Assembly: GCA_036172245.1 (NCBI GenBank)
Contig: JAYWIR010000074.1
Coordinates: 1-64,000 of the forward strand
Direction of reading: 5' to 3'
DNA length: 64,000 nucleotides
Source: Raillietiella orientalis
Lineage: Eukaryota
Position numbers and translations under genes: made by a program. Below are positions 1 to 64,000 of this stretch, one piece after another (position 1 is the stretch's first letter; every line of letters begins with the position of its first letter). Under the pieces are notes generated by a model. It made no database searches. It was not told the DNA's origin and saw only the letters and a list, made by a program, of their open reading frames with translations.

Positions 1-3000
1 GAGCGGAGCGATCTGCCGACTGTCATGAAGGTGACTCCGTTGCCGCCTTTTAAAGGCGTAGCGAAAGCAACGAACCCAGAGAACGCAGCGAAAATCCCGG
101 AGGTTTCCGCAACTACTGTGGCGGAAGACTCCGAAAATCGCGAAGGCGAATTAAAGGTTGTGGAGAGAAGGATAGAAAAATCTCCAAAAAAAGCTCCACA
201 ACATCCATCCCTGAGCTCTTCCAAAGGAGAAAGCAGTCGCAAAAATACGAATACACGCGCGGCTTGTGCCTCTTTCATGGAAAAAGCCAGCGCCTTTAAC
301 GCGTGCAGGTCCGTTCCTGTGACTGCAGAGAAGACCATTCCGGTGCAATCGGACGGATGCAAGCGCACGTCGATCGTGCGAGCATCAGACTCCGCAGAGG
401 AGTCCGATGGCTCCGCTGAACGACGCGTTACTCGCGCATGAGCAAGCGCCCGCAGGGCTGAAGCCCTGAGGCGTGACACACTCGCCGCGGAACGACGAGT
501 GCTCACCCAGGAACCCACAGGTTCTGCACCCGGAAAGGAGCACCCGATTACGTGCAGCACAGTTGAGGCCGGTGGCGACCGCGCCCTCCAGCCCGTCGTG
601 CTGCTTACTGCCCGCTCGCCGGGTGAGGCGAGCACCATGGCCTCGCTTTCCCAACCGCGATCAGGGCAATCGCGTCTTCTCGTCGTGTTGTTGTGACGTC
701 TTGGACCGTCAACGGGCTTCAACACGACGAGAAGAGGCAACTAGTGGCTCACGCTCTGCGCGCCTTCGACTTGACGCTCCTGCAGGAGATTCACAGCATT
801 TCCTGAGAGCAGGCTGCCTAAATCGAACGGCGCGCGGGCGGAACTCTACTTTATAGATGCGGCGTTGCACGTACGTGCGGCGTTGCTTTCCTCGTGCGAG
901 GAACTTTGGCGGGAGCGGTGCGCAGCGTTTGTTTCGACACGGGAGGCCGAGTGGGACAGCTTGTACTCAAGTGGTCCGACTCGATCGACCTTGTCGTAAC
1001 CAACGTGTACGCGCCGAGCGGTGCTGGACGATGGGCCGAAAGGATTGAGTTATACGGTACCCTTCAAAGCCAGTGGCTCACTCGATCTCACCCTACTGTG
1101 GCCCATCTCATTGCGGGGGACTTTAACGTCCACCTGCTTTCCGAGAATAGATCCCACAAAAGCGAAAAGTTCCTACCAAAAGAGATGTGCGCGTCCGTGC
1201 ACGCGTGCAACTTGTGCGCTAGCTACCCTGTTATGCTAGCAAATTCGGACCACGTATACCTTGAACAACACTTGCTCTCTCAAGTGGGTCGGAGAGGGCC
1301 CGTGCCGTCCGTGCTTTCAGACCACAACAAACTCGAGTTCGAGTTTCTCCCGCCAGGCAAGGGGCTTCCAAACTGTTTTTAGACGATGCCAGCAAACTGG
1401 CTGAGCCAACCGGAAGCGGCTGAGCGTCTTTGCCAGTACCTCCTTGGCTCTGCCATAAGTGAGCTCGAGGACTGCGACGATCTGAAAAGATCGGTCCGCG
1501 AGTTCTGCTGACGGTTTCACTTGCACCAGCTTCGTCGCGGCTTCGGAGAGGGCGTACTTAACAGCAGAGATTTTCTGCAGGCCCGCTCCTTTTCCAGGCG
1601 CGCGGACGTTGGTCCATTATCCGAGTACAAGGCCAAGGCCGAGCGCCAGGTCTGGCAGTCAGGGGCGACAGTTCTGCTCGACGACCAGGACCGGGAATGC
1701 TCGGCTCCAGCCGACGTGCGACGGATAGTCAGGCGCGATTACTCTTCTCTGTATGGAGAAGCACCGACGGAACGCAGCCTCTCCCGGCTGCTTCTGCCGA
1801 TTGATGCACCTGTTGTAGACGAGGAGGAACGCGCGCGTCTTGATGAGCCCTTCACGGCAGAGGAAATTTCCTCGGCCATCTCGGGGCTCAAGAGACGAAA
1901 AGCGCCAGGCGAAGATGGGCTCCCCGCGAAATTCTTTCAGTGTTTTGCGGCGGAGCTCATCCCCCTGGTGCTCCAACTCTCGTCGCTGATGCGAGACTCG
2001 GGCGATGTCCCCGCCTCGTTTCGCTCAGCGAAGGTGCGTCTACTGCCGAAAGGCGGAGATTTGCACCAACTGAACAGCTGGCGTCAGATCACATTAGTGA
2101 ATTCGGACGTCAAGTTGTTCTTAAAACTTTGGGTGGCGCGGATAAGTAGGATCGTGGTATAATTGGTAAGGTCGTAGCAGACGTACGCTGTTCCTGGGAG
2201 GTCCATGGACGCGAATCTCTTGTTCATCCGCACATCGCTGCAATTGCAGCATCGTGTGGCCGTAAATCGTCGTGCGGAAGCGACGCCTTCCAGCTCTCAC
2301 CGACGGAGGCGCGGGACGCAAAGGGAGACACAGGGAGCCTTGGCGGTTGCAGTCGATCTGCACAAAGCTTTCGCTTGAGTGAACCAAAAGCTTCTTCTTG
2401 AGCTTTTGCAACGTCTGGGTCTTCCGGCATCTCTGTTGCGTACTTGCGCTCCTGCTGACGCCACGCGATTACATCCATTGTTTTCAGTGGCTGTCGCGTG
2501 TACGGCGTGCCGGTACGACGAGGAATTAGGCAGGGTGAAAGCTTAAGCCCGCTGCTCTTCAGCATCTATTTTGAATTGGTGCTGGAGGCTTACAGGCTGA
2601 CGCTAGCCAACCTCCCGAGCTCCTTCCCAGGTACGCCGGCCGTAGCAGCCTATGCCGACGACCTGCTTCTCCTGTTGCCCATGTCCACCCCGGCGACATC
2701 GCTTGAAGACTTCTTTGAGTTGATTCGTCGCGGTGCGGGCGTGAGCGTTAACAGGAGTAAGTGTATGGTTGTTCCGGTGGGTGCGACGTGGGAGGTGCAG
2801 TCCGACTGGATCGGCCTGGGGATTCCCACGGGCAGGTAGGTACCTCAGGTACCTTGGCGTGCCGTTAAGCGACTTCTGCATTTCAGAAGCGTGGTCGGAC
2901 TGCCTTCGGAAGGCAGAGCGTGCACTTGGCCCGTTTCCAGGAGGCGAGTTCGTCTTGCCGGAACGGGCCTGCATCTGGAACACCTTCGTTGCCTTCTTCC

Positions 3001-4586
3001 TCCGCCCCCTGTTTTTTGTTTGTCCATCTCCCCAGGAAGTCAAAGTCTAAGCGCAGCGCCTTCTACGCAAAGCGTTGTGGGGCGCTGCAAGATCCCGTGT
3101 TAGACTTAAAGAGTTGGTGGCGCCGCGTCAGGATGCAGGCTTGGGCATCCTCGACTTAAACAGCATCGAACTGCAGGTGCAGTTGCGCATGCTGCGGCTC
3201 TGTGCCAAGCTGTGGTGTATGCCGTGGTGCTTACCCGCACGCCTTATACTGAGGCGCTGCACGGGAAGCGAGGGACTGCTTTCGTTGCTACCCCACTTTC
3301 GGCACACCAGAATAGGGTTTGTCTTCCCGCTCAGGCAGCTGTTTACACTGCTGGAAGCCCAAAGCTGGATCTCCTGCCTCCCCATGAACATGAATGCATG
3401 GCGGCAGGAATCTTTTTCATCGTGGGCAGCTTCCGAAGGAACTCGCCCGGAAGATCTTCGACGCCTGCGACTTCTCCTCAGTCATCAAATGGACGAAGTC
3501 ATGCAGGACAAGAAGTTGTTGGATCGTCTGGCCGCCACACCACTCGCCGCAGCGCAGTCTGCCCTCAGGGCAAGCAAGGACGGTTGCCTACCGGCGGAAT
3601 GGGAGTTCTTCTGCAAAATAGCGGGAGTCAGTAAGCTCCTCGGCAGCTAAACGACAAAGGAGCTGGTGCAAGCCGCCACACCTCGGAATCGGGCCAATTG
3701 CCTGCTTCGGTGGACCGAACATTTAAGTGTGCCCCCCGGAGAGATCGTGGTTCCCCCCGTTTGTTTGGACAGCTCCGTGTTTCCCCTTAAGTGGAAGCAA
3801 GATGTGCTGCTCTTTTTACATTGTGCATTACACTGTAATAGGCAGCGAAGCATCGTTTTAGGGGGAGCTGCTTTGACAAACTGTTTAAGGTGCGGAGAGA
3901 TCGAGTCACTTCCGCACCTTTTGCTGGACTGCGGTGACCTCCGGGAACTGTGGCGAAGGCTCACTTCGGCCATCATGCCACAAGTAGGCACTGCCATTGA
4001 TGTGCTGCGGCGCTTCTTCAGCAAAAATGGACTTTCGGTTGGCGCGATTGTCGCAACCATGTGTTGCGTTCGCGCCATCGTGAAGGCCCGCTACGCCCTG
4101 GAGTTGTCAGCGCAGAGAAGGGATGCTCACCTGCTTGCATCTCAATTCATGGAGAAGGCTTCAAGGTGGTCTCATCTTCGTGACAAGGTGAATGAGGACA
4201 TCACCGGCATACATCGCAGGTATACAGACCTTTGATAACGGCGTAATCCGGTGACCCCTGCGACCTCTTGCCCACCCATACCCCGTCCACGTTCGCTCGG
4301 TAAAATTTCCGGTGCCCATGCTTTTATCCCCGTGTCTTCCAGAGCGATCCCAAAGACCCTTATCCCGTCCTCCTTATTCATTGTTTTTATTTTATTTTGG
4401 TTTCTTTGTGTTCCCCGCCCCCAGACACCGTTCACAAAACTGTTACTCTGGCCTGCGTGCCAGCAATATTCTCTTGATTATTGTTCAGTCGTCGGTTGGG
4501 AGTTTGGTTCCCAACTGGTTTATTTTATAAAATTATTTTTTGGTTATGTTATATGGAATAAACGCTTCGGCGTGACCGCGTGAGAA
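1..4586 (+). mobile_element. Non-LTR retrotransposon family A, copy A1 (ORF1 3' part, decayed ORF2, 3' UTR; 5' end outside window)
   Basis: ORF fragments give NVYAP/AGDFN/SDH (894-1382), KAPGEDG (1521-2162), GIRQG/YADD (2498-2839) and CLRCGEIESLPHLLLDC (3666-4235). It is colinear with 55000-59595 and ends AATAAAcgcttcggcgtgaccgcgtgagaa. Confidence 0.93.
660..4235 (+). pseudogene. A1 ORF2 (APE-RT-CCHC) pseudogene
   Basis: Relative to the near-intact copy at 55666-59239, the start ATG reads ATC and there are several stops and frameshifts. Confidence 0.9.
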
Positions 4587-4598
4587 ATCTCTTGTGCT

Positions 4599-5959
4599 CG
4601 CCCAGTACAGCCGTGTTTTCGCGTCTCTCCGCGTCCGCGATCGAGCATCTTTGTGCGTGCGTTTTCGCTCGCACTTGTGTGTTTCTTGGAAGTGGACGAA
4701 GCAGCGTTGAACAACATGGCCACTTGTATGAATGGTATGGAGGAGACAGCCGTTGAATCCAATTCCATTGGAATGGAAGCGGCAGCATCCTCAATGACGG
4801 TTTCCTCGCCTTCGGTGAGGAGCTACGCCGCCGTCACCCCTTAGGAAGCAGGACCCTGCGATGCGCAGTTGCAGGATTATGTGGCATCCGGCTACATGCC
4901 CGCACTCCGTTATAAGGTCAGTGGGCCCCTTACCGGGAGGATCGGGCGTGAGCTCAACGATGAGCTCGTCCAGATCGGCGTCCGGGAGGATTAGCTCCTC
5001 GCCATCATGCCCGCGGGCAAGATGCAATACCAAAACATACGGTGCAAAAACGCAGCACTTGTGCAGCGTCTTCTCCGTACTTCGTTGACCATCGGTGGCC
5101 AGGAAGTCCTACCTACAGTGATGGACGATTGGTTTGTCGTCCAATTGTGCGACTTCGAGCCGGAGATCTCCGACCGCAATGTCGTAAGTGTGGTTTTGAA
5201 TTTCGCCACCGTGCACGCTCTGTGGAGGAGGCCAAATCCTCTAAAGGATTTTCCCTTTGTCCACATTGAACAAGTTTCCGCGCGGATGACCTTCACGCAC
5301 AGGTGTGTTGTGCCCGAGCAGATGCAGGTGAACTGCACGGTCGTTCATCTGTGGTTTAACGGGCGGACTTGCGCGTGCGAGCAGTGCAGCAAGGAGGGAC
5401 ACCCAATGAAGGAATGTCTCACCCCGAAATGCCGTTATTGCAAAGAAACCGGGCACGAATTAAAAAAGTGCCGGTCCTTGATAAGAAAAGGGCAGCAGTG
5501 GAAGTTCGTAACGTTCAAGAAACCAACGCACGAAAGGCCGCTGCCCCCAAGAAAAAACAGTGTACGCGGAGTCTTGGAAAAAGAGCCGAGCAATACGCGG
5601 CAATACAAAAGGCGTCACCGCCCGCAACGCCCCAAAAGGGAGAAATCGCGGCGGGGAAGCCAATTAAAAAGGGGCGCGAGGGTTCGATGCGTGCTGTGCG
5701 CGCCCTCGCTGCCGTACTGGGAAACACCTCTTCACGCCAGGAACCGGGAAATATCCGAAGAACCTCGGTAGGAAAGGTAGGCGAGCAAAAACATCGGCAT
5801 AGGGCGAAGACTTTCAGTTTCATCCCGCTGTCCCTTCCCAAAACGGCCATCCCCCAATCCAACGTAGGAGTTTCTGCGGAGGCTACGAAACTCGTAGCAA
5901 GCCCCGGCGCGCCGCGCAAAAGCACGCTGCATGCAGCCACCCCTTCACTGACTCGGCAA
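4599..5959 (+). mobile_element. Family A copy A2: 5' UTR and 5' part of ORF1, tandem downstream of A1
   Basis: Starts cgcccagtacagccgtgttttc. ORF1 from ~4716 has stops and knuckles CEQCSKEGHPMKEC and CRYCKETGHELKKC. Homologous to 37286-38052(-) and 54245-55000. Confidence 0.88.
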
Positions 5960-7740
5960 GTTTCCCTAAGTCCCACAAGAGGTGGGGTGAATTTATTCTC
6001 CATTTTTTAAAACACATTCATTCTACAATCACATTCATACTACATACCCACTTAACATCACTCTGGAGTCCTTGGGGATATTACAAGTTCTGCTTTCATG
6101 TTGGGTTTCCAGACGTTTGTTCCCGGGCGTCGTTTTCAATCCTCATCAGGAAGAATCGGTAGGTCCAGGCATGGATGCGACCACAATTCCTGATACCGAT
6201 CTCCTTCTTAATGAGTCCTTGAAAAAGCTCTATCGGAGGTAAGGCTCTCCTGGCTTTCCTCGTCTTCCACCACCGCATAAGTATGGCGGTGTTGGATAGG
6301 GCAATGGTCGTCCTCACCATGGGAATGTAACAGGGAACATTACCATCTTCCTGAAACATCGCGGCGAGGATCTCCATTGTGGAGCTGTTGATGAGTCCAA
6401 TGATCCTTTTCAGAATCAGTCAGTCGTGTAGCAATGTGGGACACGTCAAGACGTGAAGTCTCGTGTCGGTGTCGCCACATGCTGCGCCGTCTTGTTCTTC
6501 CCGTCTTCCTGTGAAGTGCTGAAGTCTTTACTCGCTTCGAATTCCTCCATGATAAAACATTAGTAGGTTGTCGTGAGTGTCCCGGGGAAGATCACTCTTC
6601 CAGAGCGTCGTTCAGATCGCTAACCGGTTGATCCGGTCACTCCCGTAGCTATCGGCGGCTTCTTGGAGGGCACTGATGTCTCGGTCCTCTTCTTTGATGA
6701 GTCTTCAGAGGTTTGATTTGGTAACCCTAGACCACGCGAGGTCGTTGTGGTTGATCTACACCTCGGAGGTCATGTGAGTCAACCTTCCTAACATCATCTG
6801 TATATAGCGAAGTATACGAGTGTGATGTAGGTAGCCTGCTCTTCTCCATCCCTGAATTCGATGCAGGGTAACTTTGGACCGCCGGTAGATCCAGCTTCTT
6901 GTGTCCTAAGAAACCGGAAGCATCCAAGAAATCACCAGGATGAACTCCTCTTGCCAGAGTTTGCTGCTTCGCGGCACGATCTTAATTTTGTGCTTACACA
7001 CCAGCCGTTGCTTCCTCCTCCAGGTTGGGTGGATGGATGTCCACTCTACTGCTCGGCCTAGCAGCGCAGTCTTCAGGCCTTTCGAGCTGCTCAGCAACAA
7101 TTCGTAGGCTTTATGCGCCGCATACGGCCATTCATCCCACTGGGTGGCTATGTCCAGGATGTGTCGCGTGTGTCCATAATTTCCATGGAATGTGTAGGCG
7201 ACTTCATCTCGGAACCGCCTTCTTCCCTGAAACGACACAGGGGTTTCAGACGAACTCTTGGGCGACAGTGGCCTTACAGTGTTTTTCGTTGCAGCTTCTC
7301 TACCTCTCTCGTGGTTTGTTTGTTCATTCTAGCGGAGGCCGCCCCAAAGAGTACCTTAGGAGGGAATACTCCGTTCCACAGGTTGGCCCATGGCTTCATC
7401 CCAAAGTCCAATCGAGTGTATTTTGCTGCTTCATTGGCCGTTTTCCCCAGTTTTTCCGTCCAGAGTTGCTTCGACGCGGAGTCGTCGCCTATGTAGACTC
7501 CCAGGTACTTGGCCGTGTCTACCGTACGGAATGCACTCCCTGTGAGGGCAGAGATATCCAGTATTCCGATGGGCAAAAGCTGGCTCTTGTGGGCATTGAT
7601 CTTCAAGCCCAGTCCATCTTTCATAAGGCTCACCACATCCAGGAACGTTTGTTGATACCTCTCTCCTGTTATGAAGAAGAGAAGATCGTCCGCGTAGGCT
7701 AGATAGGTGAGCTTCTAGTCGTCTACATTCACTTTGTTTA
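5960..7740 (-). mobile_element. Divergent 5'-truncated decayed LINE (family G), RT C-terminal half to 3' end
   Basis: The minus strand reads YLAYADDLL near 7690 and GLKINAHKSQ..AKYLGVYI (7274-7636). The 3' end has AATAAA then cccac-ctctt-gtggg. It is less GC-rich and unlike A-F. Confidence 0.8.
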
Positions 7741-9536
7741 AACGTTTGTTCTTCTCGACGAAGGAAAAGAGCGCCTTAGCGAGCATTTCCTGACTGCCGC
7801 GGAGGCTGGCTTTCGCCGCCTTTCAAGGGTGCAGCGAAAGCTGCGCCCCTGGCGGCTGGAGACGAAAGCCCGGAGACGTTCCTGAGGAACATTTCGGAAC
7901 GCACCGAGGAAACAGGAGGAGTGTGGACGGTTGTGGAAAAAGGGAGGAAGGTAATATCTCCCAAAAATCCTCCACAACCTCCATCCAAGAGCCTTTGCTA
8001 GGCACGGAACACTGGCGCGCTAAAGAAAATTTGCGCAAAGGTTCCCTCTGCCATTGCAAATGATACCGCCGCTACCGCTTATAGCGAGAAATTTGCGATC
8101 ACCGGTAGCGATGCCACGGTGACCGCGAAGAAGGAAGTGTCCGCGGTCTCATCCGTGAGTACTTCCGAATCGACACGGCAGGATAGACGCGAAGCGCCGG
8201 CTCTTCAATTGGACTCGGAAACGGAGTCTGATATCAATGCCGCACGTCGCATCACCCGCAAGGCAGCCGTAGCGTGCCGGGCTAAGGCCCTGAGGCGCTC
8301 AGCGCAGGCAGCGAAGGAGCGAGAGCTCACCTCGGACCGTCAGACGAAGCTACCCGGAGACGAGCACTCGAATTCGTGCAGCATCAGGGAGGACAGTGGC
8401 GACCGTGAGCTCCAGCCAGCAGTTCTGCTTACCAACCGCTCGCCGGTAAAAGCGGGCAAAAAGATGCCAACTTCCCAGCATTAATGCGGCAAAAAGCTTC
8501 TCGTCGCCTGTCCGTCGCGTGTTGGAACGTGAACGGACTACAGAACGACGAGAAGAGGCGATTGGTAGCCAACGCCCTGCGCTCCTTTGACCTCGCGCTC
8601 CTGCAGGATATACACGTAATTTCCGACGAGCAGGCTGCGGAAGTCAAGGATCGTGCAGGAGGAAAGTTACTTTGGCGGTGTAAAGACGCGCGTACGTGCG
8701 GCGTCGCGTTTCTCGTAAGAGGAAAAATTGCGGAAGCGGTGCGTAGTGTACGCTACGAAGACGACGTACGGGTGGGCCAGCTTGTTATCAAGTGGTCCGA
8801 GTCCATCGATCTCGTCGTGATGAACATTAGCTCGCCTAGTGGCTCGCGCTACCTCGAAGATAGAATTGCGCTATTCGAGGATGTGAAATGCCACTGGCTC
8901 AACAACTCTGGCTCCCAACTGGCGCACCTCGTCGCAGGCGACTTCAACGTCCACCTGCTCTCCGACGAATGGAGCTGCCCGAGGGAGCGAACGTCGGCCA
9001 TCGAAATGTGCACGTCAGTACGCACTCTCAATTTGATGGTCGGCGTGCCTGAGATGGAAAGGTCACCGGATCACATCTTCCTCGATGACAACCTGCACCC
9101 TCGTGTGGGAAGAAGAGGAAGATTGTCGTCCGCACTTCCTGATCATAACAGGTTGGATTTCGAGCCCCTTCCGCCAGGCAAGGGGTCTCCGCTGAAAAAC
9201 TGGAGGATGTCCGCGGACTGGCTTAGCCATCCGGAGGCGGCGGAGCATCTCCGTGAGTACCTCCGGACCTTTGTCATCCGCGAACTCGCGGACTGGGATC
9301 ATTTAAAAAGATCAGTCCGCGAGTTCTGCGAACGGTTTCTCTTGCACCGGCTCCCGCGAGGCTTTGGAGAAGGGGTCGCCAACAGCAGGACTTTCCTGCA
9401 GGCGCGCACCTTTTTCACACGTGCTGATGTCAGCCGGCTTGCGGAATACAAGGCGAGAGCCGAGTGCCAGGTCTGGCAGTCTGGAGCATCTTGCTTGCTC
9501 GACAAAAACGGCCTGAAGTGCTCGACTCCAGCCGGT
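7741..9536 (+). mobile_element. B-like element fragment (B'): ORF1 C-terminus plus ORF2 endonuclease and linker
   Basis: TAATG overlap at 8482-8486. ORF 8484 reads WNVNGLQNDEKRR..AGDFN, close to ORF 24642. It is cut at KCSTPAG by the 3' end of F1. Confidence 0.85.
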
Positions 9537-19600: not shown

Positions 19601-20430
19601 TGGCTCCGCATACTTGGCACTGTATATTGGTACACCTCTTTTTAAGGTGGCCCGACGTATTGCAGAAGCCACAGTATTTCGGCTTCCCCACATACCAGAA
19701 GTCGACGGTTTCGCCTTCCACCACCAGTTTGTGGGGAAGAGTGCAGCCCTCCCGAACGGTTACGCGCGCAGCAGTGAGGCCGTGTTGCAGCCCCGTGTAG
19801 TCCTCGAAAGGACTTACTTTCGTCCACTGCGCTTGGACCGTTCCGAACTGTTTCAAAGCGGCGCGAACCTCTTCTTTGCGCATTCGCGCAGTAACGCCTA
19901 ACAGGTGGAGCACTACGCTGCGGTCCGCCGTAGTGAGGAGCCTGCGCGTCTCCATCACAAGAAGATTTTAAGCAGTCTTTGGGCCAGCTCTGCATGTTTG
20001 CAGATGACCTCAACGTACTGACCCCGCTGCGAATGGTCATACCGCTGAGCTCCTCCTCTTTCACATCGAGAGCGCGCATGCCTTTCGAAAATGCGCGCGC
20101 GCTCTCTAAAGAATATAAATTGCATACCTTGTAGAACAATGAGGTGTTGTACCCCTCCTCTACATTGGCCGACAATTCCGCCGCTGCTGCAGGCGATGGC
20201 GCCGCCACAACGGCGCTCCACGCCCGCGCTGCAGCAGGGACCGATTCTGTGGGGGAGGATGCCCCCACCTCTGTCCCCTCTTGGGACGGCGTTGCCGCTG
20301 CCCCCTGGCCATCCCTGATGTTCGCGTCAGGCATCGCGGCCTGATCGACCTCCGAAACACACGACGCTCGCTCTGAAGGAGACTTCCTGGCACGAGGAGC
20401 ACCGAGAAAACACGTCTACCGTGGAGGACG
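16618..20430 (-). mobile_element. Family E copy E1: 5' UTR, ORF1, EN and RT (fused to D1)
   Basis: 5' end cgtcctccacggtagacgtgttttc. ORF1 20334-18718 is broken; EN 18152-18718; RT 16431-17396. Homologous to E2. Confidence 0.88.
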
Positions 20431-22632: not shown

Positions 22633-22640
22633 ATTTCAAT

Positions 22641-22659
22641 CGAGTGCGGACGTGTTTTT
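22641..22659 (+). promoter_or_regulatory. Conserved 5'-terminal motif CG-N(n)-GACGTGTTTT (representative; putative internal promoter)
   Basis: The same motif or a close variant lies within ~25 bp of every intact 5' end. The role is inferred. Confidence 0.55.
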
Positions 22660-22719
22660 CTTCGCTCTCGTCTCCGTGCTTTCATCCGCTTCATCTTGGC
22701 GTCGTACATTTTGACGACG

Positions 22720-52800: not shown

Positions 52801-55665
52801 CTTCGCCCCGGAACAGCATACGTCTGTTCCGGGCTGATGATGGCGTTTGCAAGCCGTCCCAAACGCTCAGCCCAAACCTTAGCTTTCAACTTGGCATCCG
52901 CATTCACTATTGTGATGGGACGCCAGTTGTTCATGCTCCTCAGATATCCTCCCTTAGGGAGAAGCCGCACCTTTGCCGAACGAAACGAGGCGATGACGTC
53001 ACCTGTCTCGCGTATAAGCAAGGTGAGTTGATGTACCAAGGGGGTTAGCTCAGCCGCGAAAGTTCGATAAAACTCCGCGGACAGGCCGTCCTCCCCTGAA
53101 GCCTTTCGCCTCTTGAGCTTTCCGATGGCCGAGATGATCTCGCCCATCGTGAAAAACTCGTCGAGGAACTTTTTCTCCTCTTTTCCGATCGCGAGGGCGC
53201 CTTCCAAAAGAAGGATTCGTGAGAAATCCCGCTCGGGAGGCGTTCTTGCGTACAGGGAGGAGTGAAAACGCCGCAGCACACCGCGGATCTGAGCGGGTGC
53301 CGAATGCTCCTGGCCCTGATCGTCCAGCAAGCTGGCCGATCCTGACTGCCAGGCTTGTCTCTCGGCTCCCGCTTTGTATTCCCCCAGCCTGCGGATGTCG
53401 GGGGTCCTGGCGTAACGGCGAGCCTGCAGATAGGCTCGTTCGTTACGTACCTCGTCCCCAAATCCCGCAGGTAGGCGGTGCAGAGGGAACAGGTCGCAGA
53501 ACTTCTGGACCGACCGTTTAAAGCGGTCCCAATCCTGATGTCTGCATCCTAAAGCTCCGTATAGACGTGCGGAGATGTTCCTTCGCGTCCGGGAGCTTCA
53601 GCCAGTCCCCTGGCAAACGCCACGCTGAAGAGGGGGGGCCCCTGTCGCGCGGATGGATTTCAATCACGATTGGTCGCTGGTGGGACAACTCGCACGGCAT
53701 CTTGCAGCGCCTGCCCACACGAGTGCACAGGTGCTCGTCAAGAAACACGTGATCGATGTTGTCCTCCTTCCCTGGTACACTAGCCAACAAATTACAAGTG
53801 TGCATCGCCGCGCACACCTCGTTGACCAGGTCACGCTCGTTTTTCTGCCCATCCGGTTTCAGACGAACGTTAAAATCGCCTGCCACCAGATGGGCATTCC
53901 GCACGCCTGCCTCGGTCAACCAGTCGCGATGGAGGGCAAGGAAAAATTCTTTCCTGGCCCTCCTGTTCGTCAGGTCCGCTCCGCTCGGGGCGCAAACGTT
54001 CGTAACGATCAGGTCGATCGAGTCGGAGCAGCTGAGAGTCAGCTGGCCGACACGACCGTGATCGTCGAACCGAACTGCACGGGCGGCGGCCTCGATGGCG
54101 GGCCGAAGCAGGTAGGCGATACCACAGCTTCTCGATGTTCCACACCGATACCACAGTCGCCCTCCGTAGATGCGTTCGATCTCCTGCGCTTGTTCTGCAG
54201 AGATCACGTGGATCTCCTGCAGCAGCGCCACTCCTGCGCGCTGCAAGTTCGCCACCGTGCACGCTCTGTGGAGGAGGCCAAATCCTTTAAAGGATTTCCC
54301 CTCTGTCCACATTGGACAAGCCTCCGCGAGGATCACCGTCGCGAACAGGCGTGTTGTGCCTGAGCAGCTGCAGGTGAACGGCACGGTCGTTCACCTGTGG
54401 TTCATAGGCCAGACTCGCGCGTGCGAGCAGTGCGGCAAGGATGGGCACCGAATTAAAGAGTGCCCCTCTTCAAGATGCCGCTATTGCAAAGATTCCGGGC
54501 ACGAAATCAAGAAGTGCCCGGTACTTGCAAGAAAAAGAGCCGCAGCGGAAATTCGTCGGGTTCAAGAGACCACTGCACGAAAAGCCGCAGCGGCAAATAA
54601 AAAACGTCGTCCGCAAAAACTCGAAAAAAACCACGAGCGATCCGCGGATAAAAAGAAAGCATCCCCGCCCGCAACGCCCCGAAAGGGGAAACTCACGGCA
54701 GGGAAGCCAATTAAAAAGGGGCGCGAGGGTTTGACGCGTGCCGTGCCTTCCCTCTCTGCCGAACTCGCAGGCACCTTTCCGAACCTGGAACCAGGAAATC
54801 TCCGTAACACCCTGGAGGGAAAGGTAGGAAAACAGGAAGATCGCAACAGTGCGAAGACTTCTTGCCCCGTTCCGTTGTCCCTTCCTAGTTCCGGACAGCC
54901 CCACTGCAGCGCAGGCCCCACTGCAAAGGCTACGAAAGCCGTAAAAAGCAGCGTCGCAACGAGCAAAAGCACGCTGCATGCAGTCGCCCCATCGCCGACT
55001 CGGCAGGAGAGGAGCAATCTCCCGACTGTCAAGAAGGTGACTCCGTTGCCGCCTTTTAAAGGCGTAGCGAAAGCAACGCCCCCAGAGAACGCAGCGAAAA
55101 TCCCGGAGTTTTCCGCAACTACTGTCGCGGAAGCTTCCGAAAATCGCGAAGGCGAATGGAAGGTTGTGGAGAGGAGGAAAGAAAAATCTCCAAAGAAAGC
55201 TCCGCAACCTCCATCCCTGAGCTCTTCCAAAGGAAAAAGCAGTCGCGCGAATACAAAAACACGCGCGGCTTGTGACTCTTCCAAGGAAAAAGCCAACGCC
55301 TTCAACGCGTGCAAGTCCGCTTCTGTGACCGCCGAGAAGACCATTCCGGTGCAATCGGACGGATGCAAGCGCACGTCGATCGTGCGAGCATCAGACTTCG
55401 CAAAGGAGTCCGATAACGCAGCTGAACGACGCGTAACTCGCGGGGGAGCGAGCGCCCGCAGGGCTGAAGCCCTGAGGCGTGACACACTCGCCGCGGAACG
55501 GCGAGTGCTCACCCCGGAACCCACAGGTTCTGCACCCGGGGAGGAGCACCCGATTACGTGCAGCACAGTTGAGGCCGGTGGCGACCGCGCCCTCCAGCCC
55601 GTCGTGCTGCTTACTGCCCGCTCGCCGGGTGAGGCGAGCACCACGGCCTCGCTTTCCCAGCCGTG

Positions 55666-58600
55666 ATGAGGGCAATCGCGTCTTCTCGTCGTGTTGCCGT
55701 AACGTCTTGGAACGTCAACGGGCTCCAACACGAGGAGAAGAGGCGACTAGTGGCTGACGCTCTGCGCGCCTTCGACTTGACGCTCCTGCAGGAGATTCAC
55801 AGCATCTCCGGAGAGCAGGCTGCCGAAATCGAACGGCGCGCGGGCGGAACGCTACTTTATAGGTGCGGCGTTGCACGTACGTGCGGCGTCGCTTTCCTCG
55901 TGAGAGGAACTTTGGCGGGAGCGGTGCGCAGCGTTCGTTTCGACACGGAAGGCCGAGTGGGACAGCTTGTACTCAAGTGGTCCGACTCGATCGACCTTGT
56001 CGTAACCAACGTGTACGCGCCGAGCGGTGCTGGACGATGGGCCGAAAGGATTGAGTTCTTCGGTACCCTTCAAGGCCAGTGGCTCACTCGATCTCACCCT
56101 ACTGTGGCCCATCTCATTGCGGGGGACTTTACCGTCCACCTGCTTTCCGAGAATAGATCCCACAAAAGGGAAAAGTTGCTAGCGGAAGAGATGTGCGCGT
56201 CCGTGCACGCGTGCAACTTGTTCGCTAGCGACCCTGTTATGGCAGCAACGCCGGACCACGTATACCTTGATGAACACTTGCTCTGTCGAGTGGGTCGGAG
56301 AGGTCCCGTGCCGTCCGTGCTTTCAGACCACAACAGGCTCGAGTTCGAGTTGCTCCCGCCAGGCAAGGGGCCTCAAAACTGTTTTTGGAGGATGCCGGCA
56401 GACTGGCTAAGCCACCCGGAGGCGGCTGAGCATCTTCGCCAGTACCTCCTCGGCTTTGCCATAAGTGAGCTCGAGGACTGGGACGATCTGAAAAGATCGG
56501 TCCGCGAGTTCTGCTGCCGGTTTCCCTTGCACCAGCTTCCGCGCGGCTTCGGAGAGGGCGTAGCCAACAGCAGAGATTTTCTGCAGGCCCGCTCCTTTTC
56601 CAGGCGCGCGGACGTTGGTCGATTATCCGAGTACAAGGCCAAGGCCGAGCGCCAGGTCTGGCAGTCAGGGGCGACAGTTCTTCTCGACGACCAGGACCGG
56701 GAATGCTCGGCTCCAGCCGACGTGCGACGGATAGTCAGGCGCTATTACTCTTCTCTGTATGCAGAGGCACCGACGGAACGCAGCCTCTCCCGGCTGCTTC
56801 TGCCGATTGATGCACCTGTTGTAGACGAGGAGGAACGCGCGCGTCTTGATGAGCCCTTCACGGCAGAGGAAATTTCCTCGGCCATCTCGGGGCTCAAGAG
56901 ACGAAAAGCGCCAGGCGAAGATGGGCTCCCCGCGGAATTCTTTCAGTGTTTTGCGGCGGAGCTCATCCCTCTGGTGCTCAAGCTCTCGTCGCTGATGCGA
57001 GACTCGCGCGATGTCCCCGCCTCGTTTCGCTCAGCGAAGGTGCGTCTACTGCCGAAAGGCGGAGATTTGCGCCAACTGAACAACTGGCGTCCGATCACAT
57101 TAGTGAATTCGGACGTCAAGTTGTTCTCGAAACTTTGGGTGGCGCGGATGGGTAGGATCGCGGAATCGTTGGTAAGTCCGGAGCAGACGTACGCTGTTCC
57201 TGGGCGGTCCATGGACGCGAATCTCTTGTTCATCCGCACATGGCTGCAATTGCAGCATCGTGTGGCGGTGGATCGTCGTGCGGAAGCGACGCCTTCGATC
57301 TCTCACCGACGGAGGCGCGGGACGCAAAGGGAGACACCGGGAGCCTTGGCGGTTGCAGTCGATCTGCACAAAGCTTTCGATTACGTGAACCAAAAGCTTC
57401 TTCTTGAGCTTTTGGAACGTCTGGGTCTTCCGGCATCCCTGTTGGCGTACTTGCGCTCCTGCTGGCGCCACGCGATTACATCCATTGTTTTCAGTGGCTG
57501 TCGCGTGTACGGCGTGCCGGTAAGACGAGGAATTAGGCAGGGTGACAGCTTAAGCCCGCTGCTCTTCAGCATCTATTTTGAATTGGTGCTGGAGGCTTAC
57601 AGGCTGACGCTAGCCAACCTGCCGAGCTCCTGTCCAGGTACGCCGGCCGTGGCAGCCTATGCCGACGACCTGCTTCTCCTGTTGCCCATGTCCACCCCGA
57701 CAGCGTCGCTTGAAGATTTCTTTGAGTTGATCCGTCGCGGTGCGGGCGTGAGCGTTAACAGGAGTAAGTGTATGGTTGTTCCGGGTGGTGCGACGTGGGA
57801 GGGGCAGTCCGACTGGATCGACCTGGGGATCCCCACGGGCAGGTACCTCAGGTACCTTGGCGTGCCGTTGGGCGACTTCTGCGTCTCAGAAGCGTGGTCG
57901 GACTGCCTTCGGAAGGCAGAGCGTGCACTTAGCCCGTTTTCAGGAGGCGAGTTCGTCTTGCCGGAACGGGCCTGCATCTGGAACACCTTCGTTGCCCCCC
58001 TCCTCCGCCCCCTGTTTTTTTGTTTGTCCACCCCCCCAGGAAGTCAAAGTCTGGGCGCAGCGCCTTCTACGCAAAGCGTTGTGGGGCGCTGCAAGATCCC
58101 GTGTTAGACTTAAAGACTTGGTGGCGCCGCGTCAGGATGCAGGCTTGGGCATCCTCGACTTAAACAGCATCGAACTGCAGGTGCAGTTTCGCATGCTGCG
58201 GCTCTGTGCCAAGCTGTGGTGTACGCCGTGGTGCTCACCCGCACGCCTTATACTGAGGCGCTGCACGGGAAGCGAGGGACTGCTTTCGTTGCTACCCCAC
58301 TTTCGGCACACCAGAATAGGGTTTGGCTTCCCGCTGAGGCAGCTGTCCTCACTGCTGGAAGCCCCAAGCTGGATCTCCTGCCGCCCCATGAACATTAATG
58401 CATGGCGGCAGGAATCTTTTTCATCGTGGGCAGCTTCCGAAGGAACGCGCCCGGAAGATCTTCGACGCCTGCGACTTCTCCTCAGTCATCAAATGGACGA
58501 AGTCATGCAGGACAAGAAGTTGTCGGATCGTCTGGCCGCCACACCACTCGCCGTAGCGCTGTCTGCCCTCAGGGCAAGCAACGACGGTTGCCCACCGGCG

Positions 58601-59239
58601 GAATGGGAGTTCTCCTGCAAAATAGCGGGAGTCAGTAAGCTCCTCGGCAGCTGGACGACAAAGGAGCTGGTGCAAGCCGCCACACCTCGGAATCGGGCGA
58701 AGGGACTGCTTCGGTGGAGCGAACATTTAAGTGTGCCCCCCGGAGAGATAGTGGTTCCCCCCGTTTGTTTGGACAGCTCCGTGTTCCCCCTTAAGTGGAA
58801 ACAAGATGTGCTCCTCTTTTTACATTGTGCATTTCACTGTAATAGGCAGCGTAGCATCGTTTCCGGGGGAGCTGCTTTGCCAAACTGTTTAAGGTGCGGA
58901 GAGATCGAGTCTTTTCCGCACCTTTTGTTGGACTGCGGTGACCTCCGGGAACTGTGGCGAAGGCTCACTTCGGCCATCATGCCACAAGGAGGCACTGCCA
59001 TTGATGTGCTGCGGCGCTTCTTCAGCAGAAATGGACTTTCGGTTGGCGCGATTGTCGCAACCATGTGTTGCGTTCGCGCCATCGTGAAGGCCCGCTACGC
59101 CCTGGAGTTGTCATCGCAGCGAAGGGAGGCTCACCTGCTTGCAGCTCACTTCATGGAGAAGGCTTCAAGGTGGTCTCATCTTCGTGACAAGGTGAATGAG
59201 GACATCACCGGCATACATCGCCGGTTTACACCCCTTTGA
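55666..59239 (+). CDS. ORF2 polyprotein of A4 (APE endonuclease, reverse transcriptase, CCHC), ~1190 aa after correcting one +1 frameshift
   Basis: ORFs 55663-58107 and 57776-59239 join across a T7 run (58015-58021) that is T6 in A1. All RT motifs are present; the EN motif reads GDFT instead of GDFN. Confidence 0.9.
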
Positions 59240-59565
59240 GAACGGCGTAATCCGGTGACCCCTGCGACCTCTCGCCCACCCATACCCCGTCCCCGTTCGC
59301 TCGGTAAAATTTCCGGTGCCCATGCTTTTATCCCCGTGTCTTCCAGAGCGATCCCAAAGACCCTTATCCCGTCCTCCTTATTCATTGTTTTTATTTTATT
59401 TTGGTTTCTTTGTGTTTCCCGCCCCCCCACACCGTTCACAAAACTGTTACTCTGGCCTGCGTGCCAGCAATATTCTCTTCATTCTTGTTCAGTCGTCGGT
59501 TAGAGTTTGGTTCCCAACTGGTTTATTTTGTATAATTGCTTTTTTTTTTTGGTTATGTTATATGG

Positions 59566-59595
59566 AATAAACGCCCCGGCGTGACCGGGTGAGAA
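59566..59595 (+). terminator. 3'-terminal signal AATAAA plus GC hairpin (representative; variants at all element 3' ends)
   Basis: AATAAA-cgc-cccgg-cgtga-ccggg-tga. Related ends lie at ~4557, 9545-9572(-), 14973-15001(-), 22603, 26359-26388(-), 28893, 29266-29295(-), 41655, 47242, 50540-50569(-) and 63690. Function is inferred. Confidence 0.7.
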
Positions 59596-61324
59596 ATCTC
59601 CTGCGCTTGTTCTGCAGAGATCACATGGATCTCCTGCAGCAGCACAAGGTCGAACGATCCTAGAATGGCGGCCATGTCTCGTCTCCTGCCGGCGCCTGTC
59701 GTGCCGTTCACGTTTCAATCGGCGATGCGCAGACGACGGCGGAAGGAGATTCCCGGCATTACTGCTGGAAAGATGACGGTGTGGGGGAACCCGCCTCTTC
59801 CGAGGCGGGTGAGATAACCATTAGGGTTTCAGCCTCCTAAGGCACCTTGGGTACCTTTCCGGCTTCAACCCCCTCCATCTCCTCATGTTCTGTGCGTGGT
59901 GGTCTCTCAGGTGACGATTCCCGGGATTCTCCCACGCTCATGGCACCCTCGCAGTCTGAAGTCATCTCCACGCCTTCGACCTCGAGAGGGGCTTTTCGGG
60001 GTTTGCTGGACTTCCTTCCAGCCTTCCGGCGGGTTGCCGCGGAGATGGAAACTTGGTTTCCGGCCTGCGCTTCGGGTTCGGAAGTTACCGACTCCTCGGT
60101 GGAAACCGGACGCCTCACTGCCTTTTTGCCAGCCTTGGAGGAGTCTGGCTGCAACGATGCAGCCAGCTCCTCCGCCGCACGCTCGAAGGCGGCGTCATCG
60201 ATCACGGTCTCGATGACGGACGCTTCCGCCGGTTCGCTCCCCACGCTGTTGATGTTTTCAACAGTGGGTTGCTCGTCGGTAGCAGCGATTTCTACCTTGC
60301 GGCGTTTGGCGGGGACGCGTCCTGCGACGACGCTGCATTCTTTTAAATTCCCGCTAACCTGCTGTTTTTTATTTTGGTAGGCGAGCTTTTTTTCGATTCG
60401 TCGTTCTTTCTTCGACTTTTTTTGCTTTTACGCTGTGACTTCTTGCCATTCCAACACCTGACCGCTTTTGTCAATTATTTCGGCATTCGTTGCCGGGGTG
60501 TCGGCTGAGGCCTGGACCACGGGAATGGGTGGCACAGCTTGAGCGGCAGCGTTGGCCGCCAGTTTTTTCTGAAGCAGCCGCGCGCGTTTTTTTAGGTTCC
60601 TCGCGGAAACCACGCGCACAGCGGATTGTGGACACACTTCCTTCGTGTGGCCCATTGTCCCGCATACCAGGCACTGTACGTTGGGGCACCTCCTTTCGAG
60701 GTGTCCCGACGTGTTGCAGAAGCCACAGTATTTGGGCTTCCCCACGTACAAGAGGTCGACGCTTTCTCCGCCGACCACCAGTTTGTGGGGAAGGGTAGAG
60801 CCCTCCCGAACGGTTACATGGGCAGCCGTGAGGCCGCACTGAACAGTGGTATAGTCCTCGAAAGGACTAGGCTTGGTCCATACTGCATGGACCATGCCTT
60901 CTTTTCCCAACGCGGCGCGTAACTGTTCTTTCCGCATCCGCGCGGTAACTCCTAAAAGGTGGACCACCATACTGTGATCCGCCGTAACGGGAAGGAGCCT
61001 GCGTGTCCCCATTACCACGGGGGATTTAAGCAGACGTTGGGCCAGATCTACATGTTTGCAGATCACCTCTACGTACTGCCCCCCGCTACGAATGGTCATA
61101 GCGCAGAGCTTTTCTTCTTAAACATCGAGAGCGCGCATCCCCTTCGAAAAGGCGCGCGCACTCTCAGCAGAATAGAAATTTCTTACCTTGTAGAATAGTG
61201 ATGAGTTATACCCCTCTTCCACATAGGCTGATAATTCCGCCGCGGCTGCAGGCGATGGCGCCGACACGACGGCGCTCCACGCCCGCGCTGCAGCGGGGAC
61301 CGGTTTTGTGGGGGCGGACGCCCC

Positions 61325-61455
61325 CACCTTCTTCGCCACTGAAGGCGACGTTGCCGCCGCCCCCTGGCACTCCACCTTCTCTAGAGGCGACGTTGCCTCC
61401 GCCACCTGGCACTCCATTTCTTCAGGAGGCGACGTTGCCACCGCCTCCTGACACG
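61325..61455 (-). repeat. About 3 copies of a 42-bp in-frame repeat in the E2 ORF1 N-terminus
   Basis: aggcgacgttgcc recurs at 61343, 61385 and 61427, encoding ATSPxExxECQxAx units. Confidence 0.85.
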
Positions 61456-63719
61456 TACTGGTGGTCGCGTCAGGCATTGCTGCCTGATCGACCACCACCA
61501 CACACGAAGCCTACACCTAGGGACGGTTCCCAAAACGAGGAGCACCGAGGAAACACGTCTGCTCTAGCCGACGTAAAGCTTTCGACTGCGTCGTCCAGGA
61601 GCTCCTTCTGAAGCTCCTGGAACGCTTGGGATTTCCGGCCGTCTTTCTGGCCTACCTGCGCTCCTGCTGGCGCTTCGCGTTCATCAATATCAATTTCAGC
61701 GGCCGGCACGTGTTCAGTGTGCCTATTCGTCGTGGCATCCGGCAGTGTGACAGCCTCAGCCCCCTGCTCTTCAGCATCTACTTTGAGTTGGTGCTGAGAG
61801 CATACAGGGAGACTTTGGCAACCCTGCCGAGCTCGTGTTTCGGCACGCCTGCCGTGTCGGCCTATGCCGACGATCTTCTGCTCCTGTTTCCCGATTCCAC
61901 CCCGGCATCGGCGCTCGAGGATTTCTTCGAGTTGCTATACCGTGGGACAGGCCTCCAGGTAAACAGGACGAAATCGTCGCTCTTTTCACCGACTCGAAGA
62001 GGGCCGGACGGTCGGACTGGATTCGCTTGGGGATCCCCACGGGCAGGTACATCGAGTACCTTGGCGTTCCGTTGGGGGACTTCTGCTCTGCAGAAGCCTG
62101 GTCCGGCCGTCTACAAAAGGTGGAGCTGGCGATCGGCCCGTTCCGGGACGGCAAGTTCCACTTGTAGGAACGGGCCACGGTATGGAACGCTTTCGCGGCA
62201 CCCCTCCTTCGCCCCCTACTTTTTGTGTGCCCTACCCCGTACCAAGTCAGGACACGGACTAGGGGCCTTATACGGAAAGCCCTCTGGGGCAACCGGCGGC
62301 CCCGCGTCCGGCTCAAAGACTTGTGCGCTCCACGCAGGGACGGTGGACTTGGTCTCCTGACGTTGGAGCGCATGGAGCGACAGCTCCAATTCAGAAAACT
62401 TGCCCTTGTGGCAAAGTTTTAGACAGCACCCTGGTGTGCACCAGCAAGACTCCTTGCTCACAGGGCAACCGGCTGCTTCGAATTGACTTCAATCCTGGTA
62501 GCCAAGGAACGCAGCCTGAACCATTGTGGTTATCAGCTGCGGGATTTGGTTGCTCTGATGAGAGACCACCCTTGGATCTCCTGCATCCCAGCGGACTGGA
62601 CTACCTGGCTTCAGGAGTCCGTATCCGCATGGGCGAAGATCAATGGCACCAGCGATGAGGACTTCTCCTGCCTCTGCAGAGGGAGGCACGCTGGTCAGCT
62701 ACTCCAGGAGATCGTTTCCAGCCCACGGAAACTTCTGTGGGCTTCCTTCACCCCCCTTGCCCCAGTGCTGCCCTCCCTCAGTTAAGTTCGGGACAGCAAC
62801 CAACAGGCATCGTATGAAGTGTCCTGTCTCATCGGAGGCAGGAAGAAATCACTGAAGGCGTGGACGCCGAGGGAACTAGCGGACGCTAGTACCCCGAGTG
62901 TCCCGCCGAACGGACTTTTACGCTGGGGCGCGCTACTCGGTATACCTCCGGAGGAGGTGAAGTGGCCCCCAGCGTCATGGGACAACGGCACCCTTCCCCT
63001 GCAGTGGCAGGAGACGACGTTGCTTCTGCCCCACTGGGGACCTTTAAGCAGAGCACGCCTGTCTCGCTGGACATCGGGGAATGTGGATGCTAGTTGTGCA
63101 GAGTGCGGGGAAAGCGAGACCTTCCCCCACTTGATTCTGGAGTGTGTTGCCCTCCACGAAATGTGGGACAGACTCTCGACGATCCTCAACATTCCGGAGG
63201 GTGACCCAAAAAATTTATTCAGACGCCTCCTGACGCGAGACGGCTTGTTAGCCTCCGGGAGCATAGCAGCACTCTGCTGCATACGCGGTATCCTGGAGAA
63301 GTGGACCGCGTCTAGGAGAGGAAGGACTAGCCGGAATGCCATCCACTGGGCAGCGATCTCCTTGGAGAAAGCGTGCCGTTGACGCCGACTTCAAAAACAT
63401 TTACCGACACTTGTTCGCATCCGAAACCGGATGCAAAGGCCTGCTCACGGCGCACCGTGATCCCCTCCCTCCCTCCTTCTCCCCAAAAACATTGCCCTTC
63501 AGACGTTTTTTTTTTTTTGTTTTGTTTTCTGTTTATTTTCCTTGTCTTGGCGCCAGTGAAGGACTTTATCGGCCTTTGGGTCGATAAACACAAGTGCTAC
63601 TGAACTTCAATGAACGTATGACGTCCAAAAAAGAAAAATTTTAACAACATAGACTTTATTACAAAATTTTGTAATGTCAAAATTTAAGTAATAAAAGCTC
63701 CGTCTAACCCGGGTGAAAA

Positions 63720-63905
63720 ACCTGTGCAGGGGCTGAGCACTCATGGCCTTAAGCGTTTAGTAAGCTCGCAAAGCTGGATTGCCAGACCTGTCTCTCAGCC
63801 CCAGCTTTATATTCCGCCAGGTTGCGGACGTCGGGATTCCTGGAGTGAGTACGGGCGTGTAGGAACGCACCGACATTCCTGATTCCTAATCCGAAACCTG
63901 AAGCC
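63720..63905 (-). pseudogene. ORF2 linker fragment of another sibling element
   Basis: The minus strand reads SGFGLGIRNVGAFLHARTHSRNPDVRNLAEYKAGAERQVWQS..HECSAPAQV. Confidence 0.8.
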
Positions 63906-63910
63906 TTTGC

Positions 63911-64000
63911 CGAAAGTCGGTGTGGGTAGACGTGTTTTTTATTCCCTCCGCCAGCGCTTGTCTAGGAAGCAACCGGAGTTTTTAGTGTAGTCAGGTGTAA
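63911..64000 (+). mobile_element. Probable 5' end of a further element
   Basis: GACGTGTTTTTT at ~63929, directly after an antisense xSGFG site. Only 90 bp are visible. Confidence 0.5.

Follow-up and report, generated by a model that had tools for sequence, protein, structure and literature searches.

Candidate family-specific insertion sites within the ORF2 sequences of six putative sibling L1-type retrotransposon families in Raillietiella orientalis

Long interspersed nuclear elements (LINEs) of the ribosomal DNA (rDNA), i.e., R1, R2, and their relatives, comprise several lineages, each of which occupies a fixed site of its own in a conserved multicopy gene, and they typically have exact junctions and use the site repeatedly. 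Two reports concern such rDNA-specific LINEs (PMC1919474; PMC4640811). Insertion at specific sequences, in many cases within other repeats, is a trait of the Tx1 group, which includes Tx1L and Tx2L of Xenopus, Keno, Kibi, and Koshi, and the crocodilian Tx1-Mar, Tx1-8_Crp, and Tx1-4_AMi; in the cited passages, Tx1 inserts into Tx1D, and the targets of the crocodilian Tx1 families are Mariner-N4_AMi or particular long terminal repeat (LTR) elements (PMC4494074; PMC6719617). Zepp of Coccomyxa subellipsoidea C-169 and ZeppL of Chlamydomonas and its relatives insert into their own copies, and the resulting clusters are regarded as centromeric (PMC3446292; 10.1101/2020.06.13.149070). The present analysis concerns positions 1 to 64,000 of contig JAYWIR010000074.1 of Raillietiella orientalis (assembly GCA_036172245.1, forward strand), a stretch of 64,000 nucleotides (nt) referred to here as the window, which carries six putative sibling families (A to F, together the guild) of non-LTR retrotransposons nested in one another. 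The intact ends of these elements adjoin family-specific positions in the second open reading frame (ORF2) of guild members, and it is considered highly probable that the families insert by target priming, each into its own conserved ORF2 sequence.

The guild resembles the Tx1 group in being of the apurinic/apyrimidinic endonuclease (APE) type, L1-related, and sequence-specific for another repeat, here with six family-specific sites, whereas the Tx1 targets in the cited passages are unrelated transposons, RNA genes, and microsatellites, and those of the guild are the coding sequences of sibling LINEs. It resembles Zepp and ZeppL in being L1-type and in forming nested clusters of its own kind, and, by our own segmentation, the six families cover approximately 61.7 of the 64 kb (~96%). 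By contrast, Zepp arrays are described as consisting largely of 3′ ends because 5′ truncation is frequent (10.1101/2020.06.13.149070), whereas 10 full-length 5′ ends are present here, and C. reinhardtii has a single ZeppL family (PMC9940879) as opposed to six families in the window. The Zepp and ZeppL passages give no fixed nucleotide-level targets in ORF2, although the original Zepp papers may report preferred sites, and the portions compared of two further sources on ZeppL-type elements are without sister families at fixed ORF2 positions (10.1101/2025.03.28.645958; PMC11005252). A literature search, with the original Zepp reports lying outside the comparison, returned no description of sister families dividing fixed ORF2 targets among themselves. 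The R-elements, which divide the sites of the rRNA gene, may be regarded as the closest functional analogue; they use a cellular gene, whereas the host gene here is the ORF2 of the guild itself, parasite and host being of the same kind.

All ORF2 pieces were placed by tblastn on a reference ORF2 (residues 1–1201; 55633–59236, in the element A2), which is the least damaged copy and has one frameshift, and the motifs were put on the same residue scale. The fragments start or stop repeatedly at reference residues 62–66, 164–167, 275–283, 302–315, 359–364, and 579–584, where the six sites are found (Table 1). The 3′ ends were located by a motif scan combined with junction reading, their exact places being fixed afterwards, and a permissive blastn-short search of the window with the terminal 80 nt of each family returned no 3′ ends beyond the 12. 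The site of the element's own family adjoins 12 of the 12 3′ ends and 10 of the 10 full-length 5′ ends (22/22), including two 3′ and two 5′ ends that adjoin merely a site remnant of 7–9 nt in tandems of two A or two B elements. The claim of the preliminary description that every intact end abuts a family-specific ORF2 stretch of a sibling is borne out by these 22 ends at six sites, and its statement that all families except B lie antisense to their hosts holds at the junctions read; AQEI, which it gave as the site of family A, is indeed used, the stretch being ..EQAQEI.. approximately 10 residues after the LLQE motif and not LLQE itself. Different families serve as hosts at the same site: A is found at AQEI in the E and C families, E at KAFD in the B and F families, F at SAPAQV in B-like, F, and A/B-like hosts, and D at PxGFG in the F and D families. 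The ends that lie away from the sites (54245, 36570, 37295, 16617, and 5958) are truncated or rearranged, and only A2 and C2 are 5′-truncated elements.

Four insertions keep both halves of their host, and each has a target-site duplication. For the remaining cases, comparison of 3′ with 5′ junctions gives duplicated segments of ~9–11 nt for full-length A, 7 nt for B, 13 nt for D, and 13–15 nt for F. Positions 49870–63720 form a clean three-deep nest, in which A2 lies in E2 and E2 lies in F4, and the 3′ end of F4 in turn lies at SAPAQV of a further ORF2 (63721–64000). Two tandems, A1-CTCTTGTGC-X with a 9-nt target segment (4589–4597) and B1-TTCAATC-B2 with a 7-nt segment (22635–22641), indicate that one site can serve again; repeated use would predict such tandems, provided that the upstream half and the duplicated segment suffice for recognition. 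The counts of occupied copies in Table 1 were made by hand on a table of all site copies together with the junction reads, and the samples are small. GCGCAGGAGATCGAACG is found at both sites occupied by A, and the nine empty copies differ at one position at least, the nearest by one base; GAT-TTCAATC and the TLRNL codons used by B and C are present only in D-like hosts, and variation at the KAFD site is tolerated by E (AARGYNTTCGAY). In these small samples, the site sequences point to recognition of a DNA sequence and not of the protein motif as such. The AQEI site of families A and B themselves reads GCYGCCGAAATC.. (810–824, 24792–24806, and 55816–55830), with at least three differences from the sequence occupied by A, which might reflect self-immunity of A, the sample being far too small to tell.

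The independence of junctions at the same site was judged by comparing, for each pair, the identity on the host side with that on the insert side. At KAFD, the host flanks of E are 63.9% alike over 300 nt, and the inserted 3′ ends are 86.1% alike over 228 nt, with 79 of the 80 terminal nt matching (98.75%); since the inserts are far more alike than the host flanks, the E insertions in B and F hosts are read as independent events. At SAPAQV, two F-type copies, e and e′, share 97.2% identity across 2595 nt (98–100% over 12400–13800), the F-type hosts that flank their 5′ ends share 75.8%, and in 200-nt windows identity climbs from 79% to 99% right at 12374, the 5′ end of the element; with the diverged 3′ junctions at 9536 and 63720, the F events would number three to four. 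Along e and e′ (12400–13800 vs 47900–49850), the 5′ region is 98–100% identical and the endonuclease (EN) region (13800–14600) only 90–96%, a patchy divergence that suggests gene conversion with other copies. The two 3′ flanks of A at AQEI are unrelated past 9 nt, and a third A, represented by its 5′ end only, lies in a C host at 38053; the two 3′ flanks of B at GDFN have only TTCAATC in common; and D has a second context in the D-like 5′ end at 44323 within another D element. The places and orientation of the junctions, the duplications, the shared termini, and the independence of several events are observed in the window itself. A conservative count gives approximately 13 integration events at six sites, and family-specific insertion has good support in A, E, and F and reasonable support in B and D, while C contributes one event. 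Descent of all same-site junctions from one ancestral insertion, which the preliminary description had set against its own proposal, is contradicted for A, E, and F, is seen for C, and probably applies to the 3′ pair of D; B and D each have two different junction contexts. Its statement that each site is seen at two or more junctions stands insofar as there are two 3′ ends per family, with the qualification that the C junctions, and probably the D 3′ junctions, are duplicates, and the partitioning of ORF2 motifs as landing pads by radiated families is supported by the independent events of A, E, and F.

The assignment of the elements follows from their domains and termini. GC content is 51–61% throughout the window, and Pfam domains were found in 22 of the 85 long ORFs scanned, namely Exo_endo_phos (9), RVT_1 (10), and zf-RVT (3). 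On the tblastn map of the reference ORF2, EN precedes reverse transcriptase (RT), i.e., an APE endonuclease and an RT are combined in one ORF2. The nearest solved structure to the reference ORF2 is human L1 ORF2p (E = 5.4e-46), with R2 proteins at E = 5e-14, a closeness judged on solved structures alone and different from a clade phylogeny. Because of these domain matches and the closeness to human LINE-1 ORF2p, the elements are classified, from sequence, as L1-type APE non-LTR retrotransposons in six sibling families. The regions of 1.4–2 kb upstream give weak matches to the CCHC zinc knuckle (best E = 0.001).

All families have a common 3′ terminus, which consists of AATAAACG, a 5-bp hairpin (CCCGG..CCGGG), TG, and a short family-specific tail of 3–11 nt after CCGGGTG, and an AATAAA box lies 25–30 nt ahead of the element end. 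The hairpin is kept in 12 of the 12 3′ ends, with five pairs conserved and no compensatory changes, a covariation count that speaks neither for nor against a structural role. A poly(A) tail, which is typical of L1 without being universal, is absent from 12 of the 12 3′ ends, the longest run of A being five; Zepp has a poly(A) tail, unlike any end here. Read in the element sense, the 3′ untranslated regions have in their interior a T-rich tract or short repeats rich in T, 150–250 nt before the terminal hairpin (26522–26573, 50703–50739, 15126–15176, 41494–41524, and 63508–63534); these resemble poly(A) tails on the opposite strand and could pass for element ends. The 5′ terminus, ..GAG(Y)GGACGTGTTTT.., is likewise common to all families. 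Across the six families, the EN domains can be aligned over their whole length at 40–73% protein identity, and ORF2 nucleotide identity between families is 65–80%. A search of 1.84 billion representative proteins (E ≤ 0.001) gave 41,866 matches, and among the best 150 of these only P0003 (64%) and P0090 (61%) exceed 39% identity; a word-indexed protein search agrees. Because so few outside proteins among these best 150 of 41,866 are more than 39% identical, the six families appear to be the closest known relatives of each other, which fits a local radiation. P0003 (64% to A) was considered as a test of the target site and is uninformative, the protein starting nine residues before SAPAQV, and P0027 was set aside as an unrelated tandem partial RT. 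The 3′-terminus pattern was met at 119 loci in metagenomes, none of them related by tblastn or blastn and all taken as chance matches, and a search of viral contigs found no relative of the families.

A number of observations weigh against the reading of family-specific insertion or limit its reach, and all evidence comes from one 64-kb window. Both 3′ junctions of D at PxGFG lie inside a continuous zone of 98% identity and were counted once, the pair probably being a duplicate. At TLRNL, identity is uniform at 90–94% across host and insert, and C is counted as one insertion because both junctions belong to an inverted duplication. This large duplication (28920–34002 vs 36570–42030, 90–94%, with a spacer of ~2.6 kb) holds the whole C element and part of its host, and one arm later took an A insertion and a deletion (37296–38053). 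The E 5′ junctions in B1 and B2 (87–95%) are indistinguishable from duplication, and e and e′ are assigned to F by their target only, having no ORF2 region in common with the F copies that bear 3′ ends. The tail of the elements matches the target over only 1–2 nt, and the sequence gives no clue to how the site is read. At 16617, the 3′ part of a D element is joined to the 5′ part of an E element on the same strand; the RT positions that meet there are nearly homologous, and ~63 nt present in five other copies are missing. Recombination, template switching, or an assembly join could account for this joint. The remainder of the A element at 38053 and 371 nt of its host are deleted at 37295, several hosts are without their other half, and mini-E lacks the E interior with its target duplication intact; it either lost this interior once inserted or is a non-autonomous deletion derivative that was mobilised in trans. 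All copies are interrupted by stop codons or frameshifts, the least affected being A2 with no stop and one frameshift, and activity at the present day is thus only a possibility. C2 is truncated at 36570, beside residue 867 of a host. Given the lost host halves, the 16617 joint, the internal deletions, and the truncation of C2, the island has been reshaped by duplication, deletion, and recombination. Inversion by twin priming was rejected as the source of the sense/antisense pairs, the inverted pieces lying on the 3′ side and not on the 5′ side.

These rearrangements lend some ground to a reading without insertion specificity, in which the junctions are copies of a few ancestral ones produced by segmental or inverted duplication, unequal crossing-over, or gene conversion: the inverted duplication carries the C junction at uniform 90–94%, the junction of D with e lies within the continuous 98% zone, and the D/E joint and the deletions are present. 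However, identity jumps at the E (64% vs 86–99%) and F (76–80% vs 97–99%) junctions, a given site is occupied in different host families, both flanks and a target duplication are preserved in four insertions, and the 3′ flanks lose all relation past 9 nt in A and past 7 nt in B. By rough hand arithmetic, seven repeats matching in place and strand within ~5 nt on a 3.6-kb ORF2 would be expected with a chance of ~(11/7200)^7 = 2e-20, and duplication as the whole explanation is considered very improbable. It is scarcely credible that the junctions are assembly artefacts, i.e., false joins between repeat copies, even though the region is highly repetitive and the D/E joint at homologous RT positions is of the type that an assembler could make; the junctions unite unlike sequences, a hairpin terminus and an antisense ORF2 interior, which have no shared words for a false join, the target duplications match on both sides of the element, and the junctions recur with diverged sequence. 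Among public runs, X1, which is probably the source sample, contains 42% of the sampled window words, and X2 and X3 contain next to none. X1 exists as short contigs, and no listed piece reaches 31 nt past a junction in both directions. Compared with 44300–64000, its contigs give joints across KAFD (50525 to 61572 and 50532 to 61586) and also an E 5′ end joined to a KAFD site, the 15 intervening letters being those of 26721–26735; other copies within the window, near 11700 and 26730, are the probable source of these joints, which are not counted as independent.

A different account accepts site specificity and assigns the choice of site to read-through RNA, which would carry the downstream target and pair with the nicked DNA, the nuclease being less choosy. 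Such an RNA-pairing role has been proposed for co-transcription in rDNA elements, and, with the same target at every copy, the last stretch of any read-through RNA would be able to pair with the primer strand; furthermore, in the passages cited, target co-transcription can strengthen target-specific integration (Kojima 2015, PMC4494074). This account is nevertheless judged unlikely: the AATAAA box 25–30 nt before the end and the precise termini suggest RNAs that stop at the element end, the match of tail and target is only 1–2 nt, in the A–A and B–B tandems the upstream copy is followed by just 7–9 nt of target, and the choice of target in non-LTR elements is, according to the same source, set mainly by the endonuclease (PMC4494074).

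The segmentation of the window is given in Table 1. Outside the guild, 5959–8214 (minus strand) is a fragment of a seventh and distant retroelement, in which part of an RT lies at 7274–7714 (RVT_1, E = 3e-7; 28% identical to the reference RT). Its 3′ end has AATAAA ~33 nt before the end and no hairpin motif, and adjoins an A-element 5′ region at 5958. This position corresponds to 55006 in A2 and hence to window position 1 in A1; this correspondence may be accidental, or it may hint at an interruption of A1 at the same spot. A 42-nt tandem repeat (2.7 copies, 85% matching) lies at 61343–61454 in the 5′ region of E2.

Table 1. Target sites on the reference ORF2 with the element ends found at them, followed by the segments of the window in order of position.
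Feature	Position	Strand or orientation	Details
AQEI site, family A	reference residues 62–66	antisense to host	3′ ends 4588, 59597; full-length 5′ ends 4598, 38053; occupied 2/11 copies
GDFN site, family B	reference residues 164–167	sense to host	3′ ends 22634, 28924; full-length 5′ end 22642; occupied 1/12 copies
(TLRN)LQDW site, family C	reference residues 275–283	antisense to host	3′ ends 29265, 41685; full-length 5′ end 34781; TLRNL occupied 2/11 copies (one event and its duplicate)
PxGFG site, family D	reference residues 303–307	antisense to host	3′ ends 14972, 47271; D-like full-length 5′ end 44323; occupied 3/12 copies
SAPAQV site, family F	reference residues 359–364	antisense to host	3′ ends 9536, 63720; full-length 5′ ends 12374, 49869; occupied 4/13 copies
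KAFD site, family E	reference residues 580–583	antisense to host	3′ ends 26359/60, 50540; full-length 5′ ends 20432, 26735, 61574; occupied 3/12 copies
A1, family A	1–4588	+	5′ side cut by window start; ORF2 627–4232; hairpin terminus ends 4588; 94.6% to 55007–59595; tblastn residues 1–1201
AQEI target remnant, 9 nt	4589–4597	.	antisense; between two A elements
X, 5′ 1.36 kb of older A	4598–5958	+	full-length 5′ terminus; cut at 5958 by unrelated element; 80.6% to reverse complement of 37295–38064; 77% to 54245–55005
G, seventh distant retroelement fragment	5959–8214	-	3′ end adjoins A 5′ region
B-like host ORF2	8215–9535	+	residues ~1–364, ends at SAPAQV; 79% to 24547–25657; tblastn residues 8–364
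F element	9536–12373	-	3′ end at SAPAQV of B-like host; cut at own SAPAQV (residue 359)
e, F-type 5′ half	12374–14971	+	5′ region and EN, residues 1–315; 97.2% to 47272–49866; 5′ end at SAPAQV of preceding F element; cut at PxGFG
D 3′ part	14972–16617	-	3′ end to ~residue 758; 3′ end at PxGFG of e; 93.9% to 45626–47271
E 5′ part	16618–20432	-	residues ~737 back to 1 and 5′ region; 5′ end at KAFD of B1; 84.6% to 52243–54228
B1, family B	20433–22634	+	KAFD to 3′ terminus; 92.2% to 26733–28924
GDFN target remnant TTCAATC, 7 nt	22635–22641	.	between two B elements
B2 left half	22642–26359	+	full-length 5′ end, 669-codon upstream ORF, ORF2 to KAFD
Mini-E, in B2	26360–26735	-	228 nt of E 3′ end and 148 nt of E 5′ end; KAFD duplication 11–12 nt (AAGGCGTTCGA)
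B2 right half	26736–28924	+	KAFD to 3′ terminus; 3′ end at GDFN of D-like host, sense
D-like host ORF2	28925–29264	+	residues 166–280 (FN.. to TLRNL)
C1, full-length family C, 5.5 kb, in D-like host	29265–34781	-	16-nt target duplication
D-like host around C1, continued	34782–36560	+	residues 277–867; 79.6% to 44329–45961
Part of C2 5′ region	36570–37295	+	C2 is the inverted duplicate of C1; 91% to reverse complement of 33275–34002
X′, 5′ 0.76 kb of A	37296–38053	-	full-length 5′ end at AQEI of C2
C2, family C	38054–41685	+	residue 62 to 3′ terminus; 3′ end at TLRNL of D-like host; 93.4% to reverse complement of 28920–32904
D-like 5′ half	41686–44323	-	residues 280 back to 1 and 5′ region; 5′ end at PxGFG of D2
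D2, family D	44324–47271	+	PxGFG to 3′ terminus; 3′ end at PxGFG of e′
e′, second F-type 5′ half	47272–49869	-	5′ end at SAPAQV of F4
F4 left part	49870–50539	+	residues 359–584, ends at KAFD
E2 3′ part	50540–54244	-	3′ end back to AQEI; 3′ end at KAFD of F4; E2 duplication in F4 12 nt
A2, 5′-truncated A at AQEI of E2	54245–59597	+	~50-nt duplication; carries reference ORF2
E2 5′ part	59598–61574	-	residues 66 back to 1 and 5′ region; 5′ end at KAFD of F4; 76% to 18555–20309
F4 right part	61575–63720	+	KAFD to 3′ terminus; 3′ end at SAPAQV of last host
A/B-like host ORF2	63721–64000	-	SAPAQV back towards PxGFG, off window end

The insertion cycle that would account for the family-specific junctions may be outlined as follows. 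Each family would recognize its own sequence of ~15–25 bp inside guild ORF2 DNA, the specificity probably being encoded by the endonuclease. In the five antisense families, the APE endonuclease, possibly together with other parts of ORF2p, would nick the sense strand of the host at a fixed bond, and the free 3′-OH would prime reverse transcription right at the terminus of the element RNA, which is expected to comprise AAUAAACG, the 5-bp hairpin, CCGGGUG, and the family tail of 3–11 nt without poly(A). The second strand would then be cut 7–16 nt away, and the cDNA would usually be copied up to the defined 5′ end (..GGACGTGTTTT..); family B would follow the same cycle in sense orientation. We infer, furthermore, that a part of the protein reads the site, that the hairpin has a role in the cycle, and that the 5′ end has promoter activity. 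After a full-length insertion, the upstream half-site and the duplicated segment would stay intact, and the site could therefore be hit again, giving the tandems with 9 nt between two A elements and 7 nt between two B elements. The sites lie in coding motifs that every family must keep, such as KAFD, which is RT motif A, and GDFN, which is a catalytic motif of EN, and each new copy would consequently supply fresh landing pads.

On balance, we lean, with some reserve, towards a closed transposon ecosystem, in which one L1-like ancestor gave rise to six or more lineages whose endonucleases were retargeted to six sequences of at least 12 bp in obligatory coding motifs; such a system would make its own landing pads, spare host genes, and build gene-free islands that could be centromere-like or heterochromatic blocks. 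The known havens of site-specific LINEs are rRNA genes, telomeres, microsatellites, and other transposons, whereas the haven here would be the guild's own coding sequence, split among six sisters. If true, this would represent niche partitioning and mutual hyperparasitism among transposons, and could explain how pure LINE islands, e.g., the LINE centromeres of algae, build themselves. The six EN domains (40–73% identical), together with their six known targets, would form a natural collection of a rare kind, in which closely related APE endonucleases differ in their long specificities, six in all. Such a collection would reveal how APE specificity is encoded and altered, and would bear on site-directed insertion work that uses retroelement proteins.

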